Below, in pieces: positions 54,001-57,000 of a stretch of DNA of 64,000 nucleotides. The stretch lies in assembly GCF_002854065.1 (NCBI RefSeq), contig NZ_CP024153.1; one strand, given 5' to 3'. A program made the position numbers. Numbering within the stretch: the stretch's first letter is position 1; each line of letters begins with the position of its first letter. Source of the DNA: Escherichia coli. Lineage in GTDB: Bacteria; Pseudomonadota; Gammaproteobacteria; Enterobacterales; Enterobacteriaceae.

Positions 54001-57000
54001 TCCCACACGGCACCGGCGCCCGGCAAGGTGGGCGGATTTCCACACAGCACCGGCGCGCGGCAAGGTGGGCTGATTCCCACACGGCACCGGCGCCCGGTAA
54101 GGTGGGCGGATTTCCACACGGCACCGGCGCCCGGTAAGGTGGGCGGATTTCCACACAGCACCGGCGCCCGGCAAGGTGGGCTGATTCCCACACGGCACCG
54201 GCGTCCGGTAAGGTGGGCGGATTTCCACACAGCACCGGCGCGCGGCAAGGTGGGCCGATTTCCACACGGCACCGGCGCCCGGCAAGGTGGGCGGATTTCC
54301 ACACGGCACCGGCGCCCGGTAAGGTGGGCTGATTCCCACACGGCACCGGCGCCCGGCAAGGTGGGCTGATTCCCACACGGCACCGGCGCCCGGTAAGGTG
54401 GGCGGATTTCCACACAGCACCGGCGCGCGGCAAGGTGGGCTGATTCCCACACGGCACCGGCGTCCGGTAAGGTGGGCGGATTTCCACACAGCACCGGCGC
54501 GCGGCAAGGTGGGCTGATTCCCACACGGCACCGGCGCCCGGTAAGGTGGGCGGATTTCCACACGGCACCGGCGCCCGGCAAGGTGGGCTGATTCCCACAC
54601 GGCACCGGCGCCCGGCAAGGTGGGCTGATTCCCACACGGCACCGGCGCCCGGTAAGGTGGGCTGATTCCCACACAGCACCGGCGCCCGGCAAGGTGGGCT
54701 GATTCCCACACGGCACCGGCGCCCGGCAAAGTGGGCGGATTTCCACACAGCACCGGCGCCCGGTAAGGTGGGCGGATTTCCACACAGCACCGGCGCCCGG
54801 CAAGGTGGGCTGATTCCCACACGGCACCGGCGCCCGGTAAGGTGGGCGGATTTCCACACAGCACCGGCGCGCGGCAAGGTGGGCCGATTTCCACACAGCA
54901 CCGGCGCCCGGCAAGGTGGGCGGATTTCCACACAGCACCGGCGCGCGGCAAGGTGGGCCGATTCCCATATCGACATGTATGTAGCTTGTGTTATCCGTGG
55001 ATTGTGCAGCTCAGCTGGTCGTATGGCGGAGTGTCCCCCGTAACCGGCCGCGTGCGGCCGCTAACGCGCAGTACGGCCCCCCCCGTGGGGGACGTGCGGC
55101 AGCTGCGTGGCGGTGAGCGGGATTAGGGCTTTGCAGCTACCGTGTTAAGTTCCCTGGTGTCGCTGAAAGAGTTGATGAACATCCCCCTAAGCGTCAGCAG
55201 CAAGCTGCCGCCGCTAAGTCCCCGGAAATCACGCCCTTTACGTCGTAAACGCCGTAAAGCCCGCTCACCGGGGTTAAAAGGGATTACTTTGACTTCTTCA
55301 TTGCTGTTCGCGAGTTAAGGCTAATCAGGGCAGGGGGTAGGGTGGCAGAATTTATAGCCCGGCAACGGGCTACGCCGGGCTTTCGGCGCCATTTTACAAC
55401 ACAGACACATGTAACCTCATCTGGCGCCTCCATGCCGCTGACGCGGCATTCAGAAGCTTCCCAATGCTGTAGGTTTTAACATCTGCTTTATGTCAGAAGC
55501 GGATGGTTCAGAAGCCAGCAGTTTCCAATAACAGATATAGTATCGAACCGGATACTCATGATTTTTGGGTGACGCTGCCAACTTACTGATTTAGTGTATG
55601 ATGGTGTTTTTGAGGTGCTCCAGTGGCTTCTGTTTCTATCAGCTGTCCCTCCTGTTCAGCTACTGACCGGGGTGGTGCGTAACGGCAAAAGCACTGCCGG
55701 ACATCAGCGCTATCTCTGCTCTCACTGCCGTAAAACATGGCAACTGCAGTTCACTTACACCGCTTCTCAACCCGGTACGCACCAGAAAATCATTGATATG
55801 GCCATGAATGGCGTTGGATGCCGGGCAACTGCCCGCATTATGGGCGTTAGCCTCAACACGATTTTACGTCACTTAAAAAACTCAGGCCGCAGTCGGTAAC
55901 CTCGCGCATACAGCCGGGCAGTGACGTCATCGTCTGCGCGGAAATGGACGAACAGTGGGGATACGTCGGGGCTAAATCGCGCCAGCGCTGGCTGTTTTAC
56001 GCGTATGACAGGCTCCGGAAGACGGTTGATGCGCACGTATTCGGTGAACGCACTATGGCGACGCTGGGGCGTCTTATGAGCCTGCTGTCACCCTTTGACG
56101 TGGTGATATGGATGACGGATGGCTGGCCGCTATATGAATCCCGCCTGAAGGGAAAGCTGCACGTAATCAGCAAGCGATATACGCAGCGAATTGAGCGGCA
56201 TAACCTGAATCTGAGGCAGCACCTGGCACGGCTGGGACGGAAGTCGCTGTCGTTCTCAAAATCGGTGGAGCTGCATGACAAAGTCATCGGGCATTATCTG
56301 AACATAAAACACTATCAATAAGTTAGAGTCATTACCCATTATCCTGTGGTCACACTCTGCCATGTGTTCGGGGTTCATCGCAGCAGCTACAGATACTGGA
56401 AAAACCATCCTGAAAAACCAGACGGCAGACGGGCTGTATTACGCAGTCAGGTACCTGAGCTACATGGCATCAGCCACGGTTCGGCCGGAGCAAGAAGCAT
56501 CGCCACAATGGCAACCCGGAGAGGCTACCAGATGGGACGCTGGCTTGCTGGCAGGCTCATGAAAGAGCTGGGGCTGGTCAGCTGTCAGCAGCCGACTCAC
56601 CGGTATAAACGTGGTGGTCATGAACATGTTGCTATCCCTAACTATCTTGAACGGCAGTTCGCCGTGACCGAGCCAAATCAGGTGTGGTGCGGTGATGTGG
56701 CCTATATCTGGACGGGTAAGCGCTGGGCGTACCTCGCCGTTGTTCTCGACCTGTTCGCAAGAAAACCAGTGGGCTGGGCCATGTCGTTCTCGCCGGACAG
56801 CAGGCTCACCATGAAAGCGCTGGAAATGGCATGGGAAACCCGTGGTAAGCCCGGCGGGGTGATGTTCCACAGCGATCAGGGCAGTCATTATACGAGCAGG
56901 CAGTTCCGGCAGTTATTGTGGCGATACCAGATCAGACAGAGTATGAGCCGGCGCGGAAACTGCTGGGATAACAGCCCAATGGAACGCTTCTTCAGGAGTC

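Follow-up and report, generated by a model that had tools for sequence, protein, structure and literature searches.

A frameshifted IS1SD-like copy at a plasmid rearrangement scar in Escherichia coli and the probable movement in trans of copies sharing its lesion

The most probable account of the IS1SD-like element described here is that it is a copy unable to make its own transposase, lying at a scar of plasmid rearrangement, that its lesion, one extra C (hereafter +C), is shared with other IS1 copies through recombination or gene conversion, and that copies carrying +C have moved in trans. This account is built on sequence comparison. The element lies in a stretch of 64,000 nucleotides from Escherichia coli, analysed as a whole and called the window throughout. 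The view of the copy as an isolated dead relic, to which the original prediction lent itself, did not survive, since sister plasmids proved to have two further IS1 copies with the same +C, which was also found in chromosomal insertions with target duplications.

Results

The sole IS1 copy within the window occupies 55568–56336 on the + strand, and the length of 769 bp predicted for it was borne out by its inverted repeats and by its alignment to other IS1 copies. The left inverted repeat (IRL, 55568–55590, + strand) has one mismatch to the IS1 consensus, the substitution T6C relative to IS1A at 55573, where 0 matches are expected by chance. The right one (IRR, 56314–56336, − strand) also has one substitution relative to IS1A, a G to A change at element nt 758 (window 56325), and the same A allele is present in a Shigella dysenteriae copy. 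With IS1A, IS1B and IS1SD the copy shares a length of about 768 bp together with IS1-type imperfect terminal inverted repeats, by which the family is recognized, as well as the insA/insB′ layout and the A6C motif for −1 frameshifting. Its identity is 98.6% to K-12 IS1A and reaches 99.1% with the closest copies compared, the S. dysenteriae plasmid copy among them. We call it an IS1SD-like isoform (type A); the PGAP/RefSeq label of its gene is “IS1-like element IS1SD family transposase, frameshifted”. Apart from T6C in the IRL, its private alleles relative to IS1A are G76S, S130R and V136D in InsAB′. It departs from IS1 in its length of 769 bp, in +C at nt 100 and in the lack of a target duplication at this site.

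When the element was aligned with K-12 IS1A and seven further copies, including the closest E. coli copy and the S. dysenteriae plasmid copy, one C proved to be inserted at its nt 100. At 55667/55668 (+ strand) the window reads CTGACCGGGG, with CC for a single C, versus CTGACGGGG in the other IS1 copies, and the remaining differences from the aligned copies are ordinary isoform SNPs. The extra C early in insA was thus seen in the very kind of alignment that had been proposed for checking it, in line with the word “frameshifted” in the PGAP label. From the normal GTG start at 55623 (IS1 nt 56), the insA frame (55623–55682, + strand) is shortened to 19 codons and a TAA at 55680–55682, retaining just the first CxxC of the zinc ribbon. 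This stop rules out the synthesis of InsA and InsAB′ from the normal start, in agreement with the original prediction, and the copy is without the intact insA and insAB′ of an autonomous element. The rest of insA (55669–55899, + strand), comprising the second CxxC and the HTH, is out of frame with the normal start and is fused in frame with a 101-codon ORF that opens at GTG 55594 within the IRL. In this ORF, Pfam matches positions 15–35 only of the 35 positions of the Zn_ribbon_InsA profile, the first CxxC being lost. Further downstream, the AAAAAAC (A6C) motif (55875–55881, + strand), which functions as a programmed −1 frameshift site (PMC12903888), is intact, and the insB′ frame with the DDE domain (55882–56321, + strand) is open up to its normal stop. 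Once the C is removed, the copy has the frame linkage and the domains of the IS1 family; the products are then a 91-aa InsA and a 232-aa InsAB′, the latter with full-length Zn_ribbon_InsA (PF03811), HTH_Tnp_IS1 (PF12759) and DDE_Tnp_IS1 (PF03400).

Two ways in which the 769-bp form could still be functional were considered and rejected. The copy does not encode an alternative intact insA, as a natural 769-bp isoform would, since with all frames checked the sole long ORF was the one of 101 codons, without the first CxxC. Rescue through +1 ribosomal frameshifting or transcriptional slippage would not be expected either, since the sequence from the C to the TAA offers no slippery or homopolymeric context. 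The literature searched yielded no specific description of a 769-bp or +C IS1.

A synthetic query without the C was used to search for an intact allele at the same site. It recovered five plasmids (NZ_MW423609, NZ_CP097182, NZ_CP050174, NZ_KX518744 and NZ_CP139131) with the same left junction and an otherwise identical 768-bp IS1, annotated as an intact transposase (WP_236919600.1). No record beyond those five carried the 768-bp sequence in the plasmid collection, and the next-best copy sampled among complete E. coli genomes had 99.1% identity. The C is the only difference between the 768- and 769-bp alleles over 2351 bp of unique sequence around the element; with zero differences in the flanks within these 2351 bp, no SNP was found by which to polarize +C and no-C as gain or repair. 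The intact 768-bp allele at the same site indicates that the C is the sole lesion and that it is polymorphic within one plasmid lineage. This shows that +C is a derived or polymorphic single lesion and not an isoform feature. An isoform sharing this sequence with an intact insA had been named beforehand as an observation that would speak against the predicted frameshift; taken literally, the five plasmids carry such an isoform, but the window copy is not rescued by it.

The lesion is real, inherited and already annotated as a pseudogene in RefSeq. The 1369-bp junction stretch, composed of the flanks and the IS1 with its extra C, was 100% identical among the matches listed, and at least 80% of it was present in 84 plasmid records (from E. 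coli, Salmonella, Klebsiella and Shigella) and in 55 complete E. coli genomes. An exact 62-mer spanning the C was found in 87 plasmid records, and one independent metagenome contig carries the same C and the same left junction, terminating inside the IS1. A +C 36-mer gave 0 matches when scanned over a collection of species-representative genomes (about 100,000 species, according to the tool description). The +C variant is rare outside this plasmid lineage.

The IS1 copy is bordered by TGATTTTTG on its left and by CATTATCCT on its right. These flanks differ and hold no direct repeat of 8–9 bp, so the window copy is without a target duplication, as had been claimed for it. Its right neighbour was predicted to be an IS3-family OrfB without its 5′ end, and it proved to be an 857-bp remnant of IS911 (IS3 family; 56337–57193, + strand), whose orfB lacks the 5′ end and which runs to the exact IRR terminus. 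The remnant ends at 57193 with an exact 24-nt match to the IRR and encodes an OrfB with the rve DDE integrase core (E=3e-31), that is, with the terminal repeat and the core typical of IS911 and the IS3 family, and PGAP names it “IS911 family transposase, missing N-terminus”. Just the 3′ 857 bp are kept; the IRL and orfA are missing, as is the beginning of orfB. The remnant is continuous with internal sequence of another IS911 copy (L026), which is itself interrupted. If IS911 is 1250 nt long, as we take it to be, the breakpoint would lie at about nt 394.

Between the end of IS911 and sopB lie 4.8 copies of a 43-bp sopC-like repeat (57347–57553, + strand), part of a sopAB/repE (RepFIA-type) module. 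These repeats look like a sopC-type partition site, and their number differs between sister plasmids, as 43-bp offsets in the alignments indicate. Two relatives of the sop module are without IS911; their match to the window begins exactly at 57194, and what they carry upstream is umuDC. The IS911/sopC junction was found in 95 records, versus 89 for the IS1 junction, and is held by this plasmid lineage only. No intact IS911 beside this sopC was identified, the six records by which the two counts differ being covered by the count only.

On the other side of the IS1, a module at 55114–55503 (+ strand) is about 94% identical to DNA downstream of the IncFII(K) repA of Klebsiella plasmids. The 64 bp that abut the IS1 on this side (55504–55567) were unmatched in the three related loci compared; they are present across the plasmid lineage studied here. 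The two flanks were not found near each other in the two relatives of the sop module or in the three of the left flank, and these relatives of both flanks indicate that the IS1 joins two unrelated plasmid modules.

The IS1-associated deletion of the original prediction has to be qualified. An IS1 that joins unrelated modules, without duplication and next to a truncated IS911, makes an IS1-mediated adjacent deletion plausible, but deletion is one of several routes, as cointegrate formation or resolution and IS1×IS1 recombination fit the junction facts too. A comparison of the three plasmid IS1 copies by eye, in direct and reverse-complement orientation, found no reciprocal target-duplication halves. 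IS1-mediated adjacent deletions and replicon fusions likewise leave a single IS1 without duplication, with a truncated neighbour and DNA of different origin beside it; here the ancestral arrangement was not found, so that deletion, cointegration and IS1×IS1 recombination are not separable.

The sister plasmids p14EC001c, pG3X16-2-3, pCUWW11A and pHYEC7-110 have two further IS1 copies flanking rclA, both with +C, which we name types B and C, the window copy being type A. Type B differs from the window copy by 8 SNPs and type C by 2, and type C looks like a hybrid of A on its left and B on its right. Counts were made with a 48-mer for which only +C copies can provide a seed. Of 5426 E. coli genomes, 66 contain matches to it, at 161 places in all, of which 149 lie on plasmids and 12 on chromosomes; among plasmid records, 90 contain matches, at 231 places. 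Each of the three plasmid positions occurs both with and without +C: in pHYEC7-110 position A is intact and the other two have +C, and in pYUSHP6-tetX none of the three has it. Moreover, position A is occupied by an A/B hybrid in pG3X16-2-3 and pCUWW11A. Such position-wise variation, together with the hybrid copies, means that recombination or gene conversion between copies clearly happens. +C at nt 100 was also observed in a copy of NZ_CP067400.1 and in three of the chromosomal copies described below (L017, L018 and L019), on IS1B- or IS1A-like SNP backgrounds that have no relation to the window isoform. This points either to GAC^GGGG as a site of recurrent insertion or to transfer of the lesion between co-resident IS1 copies by short-patch conversion.

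Relative to pG3X16-2-3, about 5.9 kb are gone from the window plasmid (28725–34616 of pG3X16-2-3), including IS1-C, rclA, IS1-B and ISEc22. The junction of this deletion lies at window position ~53882–53885, with its left edge in a region of IS30/IS3 remnants and its right edge at the start of an array of 37-bp repeats. The array (53882–54967), just left of the IS1 flank, is made of 29.4 tandem copies with 91% matches, and it varies in copy number and sequence across sister plasmids. It yields three overlapping spurious minus-strand ORFs of 360–390 codons and several short plus-strand ones, and it may be iteron-like. Elsewhere in the window, repeated ORF sets of equal length (240-codon TTG ORF) at 3208–3930, 8633–9355, 18473–19195, 25163–26044 and 31338–32060, with an opposite-strand 234-codon ORF as well at 25163–25867, suggest multiple IS26-type copies. 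The RefSeq annotation of pG3X16-2-3 implies a sil copper/silver operon at about 33–45 kb.

Among the 13 +C copies examined, the rest of the coding sequence was undamaged in all, and 7 have target duplications, at six distinct sites. These 7 are chromosomal, and two of them are identical to a plasmid type over 769 of 769 positions: the copy of strain EC96 (L016; 9-bp duplication, AGCCGTCAA) to type B and that of strain CUWW11 (L015; 8 bp, CGTAATAT) to type C. Insertions of the defective allele with a target duplication are thus known for both sister types. CUWW11 carries pCUWW11A, with its +C copy of type C, and EC96 has a member of the plasmid lineage in which +C occurs at three places. When the empty site of L016 was rebuilt with one copy of the 9-bp repeat, it corresponded to the contiguous yjiC–uxuR sequence of 4885 genomes, which makes L016 a clean simple insertion. 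No duplication-flanked insertion identical to the window's type A was found; the closest is the copy of strain EC24 (L013; 8 bp, TGAAACCA), a mosaic of type-A ends and a type-B-like middle. A second mosaic, in strain CUPF12 (L014; 8 bp, CGAAAATC), splits an acyltransferase gene. Strains EC11 and HD12480 have a copy of IS1B-like background in pgaB (L017 and L018; 9 bp, TTGCACTTC), and strain BN01 has one of IS1A-like background (L019; 8 bp, TATTTTTT). EC24 and CP8-3_Sichuan also have the plasmid. IS1 in general occurs in 4969 of the 5426 E. coli genomes, at a median of 11 places per genome.

In the chromosome of E. coli ES4 (NZ_CM184348.1), a +C type C IS1 was found with the plasmid's own left flank, CTATAGGACGCAAAA, adjoining a partial FAD-dependent oxidoreductase pseudogene, which suggests integration of part of the plasmid rclA region via IS1.

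Discussion

What the window contains is a pseudogenised IS1 of an ordinary sort, situated at a scar of plasmid rearrangement, and no new kind of element. In the course of events that we propose, the duplication of one C at nt 100 stops insA after 19 codons, and the lesion parts the first CxxC from the second CxxC, from the HTH and, past the A6C site, from the DDE domain. Judging from its sequence and from published work according to which end binding needs the zinc finger, the copy would yield neither the InsA repressor nor the InsAB′ transposase. As both inverted repeats and the remaining coding sequence are intact, it would be a substrate movable only by InsAB′ from other IS1 copies. The copy would have come to abut a 5′-truncated IS911 that had itself inserted beside sopC of a RepFIA-type module, its opposite side joining an unrelated replicon-origin-like segment, and this arrangement would have been passed vertically within a sil/MDR plasmid lineage of IncFIA/FIB/X1 type. 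From the window plasmid, the other two IS1 copies that bear +C on sister plasmids have been deleted. +C would have been exchanged among copies through recombination or gene conversion, and +C copies identical to the plasmid ones would have entered host chromosomes with duplications of 8–9 bp, most simply by trans-mobilization.

Target duplications of IS1 are of 8 or 9 bp (PMC12903888), and the perfect 8- and 9-bp duplications around +C copies indicate that the defective elements still move. Most simply, +C elements would have transposed from plasmid to chromosome. According to PMC12903888, both the zinc finger, for which Ohta et al. are cited, and the HTH are required for binding of the IS1 ends; InsAB′ was also shown experimentally to act in trans on immobile IS1 copies and on miniIS1 (PMC12903888). 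Given this published need for the zinc finger and this action in trans, and since the +C element has no complete zinc ribbon, we infer trans-mobilization by resident intact IS1 copies. The trans activity was noticeable only at raised transposase levels (PMC12903888), so that natural trans-mobilization would be rare.

The strongest competitor, which we regard as unlikely, is that gene conversion, homologous recombination or homogenization during polishing is all that spreads +C, the chromosomal copies having inserted intact and gained their C later. The +C polymorphism and the SNP mosaics mean that conversion, or mis-assignment in polishing, could have put +C on some copies, the mosaics above all, after their insertion. 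Such a history would suit the independent presence of +C at A, B and C (pHYEC7-110 and pYUSHP6-tetX), the hybrids and mosaics (type C, position A of pG3X16-2-3 and pCUWW11A, L013 and L014) and the finding of +C on IS1B-like and IS1A-like backgrounds (NZ_CP067400.1, L017–L019), but it must also accommodate L016 and L015, which match at all 769 positions the +C copies of the same strains' plasmid lineage. Transposition from one +C donor requires fewer events than an unseen intact donor followed by later conversion, and no intact type B allele was seen.

It is considerably more doubtful that the +C element is alive. A restart at GTG GTG (55671–55676), or translation of the 101-codon ORF, would in this case give an active altered InsA/InsAB′ and a self-mobilising element, its activity possibly de-repressed for want of full-length InsA. 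Any such product would be without the first CxxC, with just positions 15–35 of 35 of Zn_ribbon_InsA remaining, and the zinc finger is reported to be necessary if the IS1 ends are to be bound (Ohta et al., cited in PMC12903888). The idea draws on the undamaged rest of the coding sequence in 13 of 13 +C copies, 7 of them, at six sites, with target duplications, and on GTG GTG codons that stand in the InsA frame 4–9 nt before the premature stop; against it also counts the rarity of the variant (0 matches in species-representative genomes and one metagenome contig). If it were true, restart together with lost repression would explain the lesion on three plasmid copies and several fresh chromosomal insertions.

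Finally, an error of sequencing or assembly in the window, which the original prediction itself had raised as a possible read error and which a single-base indel beside a G4 run might invite, can be dismissed with near certainty, as the identical sequence comes from many independent studies, hosts and countries (84 plasmid records, 55 genomes and a metagenome contig) and the 768-bp allele was also recovered, meaning that assemblers can resolve both states.

Under the preferred reading of a transposase-null IS1 whose sister copies moved in trans, the +C element resembles trans-mobilised non-autonomous elements, such as miniIS1 cassettes and MITE-like elements, in having intact ends and no self-encoded transposase, and in the new insertions with 8–9 bp duplications that its sister copies have made. 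It differs from them in being full length with a single point lesion, and here the mobilization in trans is what the comparisons suggest.

The practical value of these findings lies mainly in annotation and epidemiology. The junction of +C IS1, ΔIS911 and sopC is a stable marker, specific to the lineage, for a family of sil/MDR hybrid plasmids that has been widely sampled, in pigs, food, wastewater and patients. As for the IS1 family itself, point lesions travel between IS copies by recombination, and the genomes seem to record the movement of transposase-null IS1 copies, which suggests that trans-mobilization occurs in the wild.
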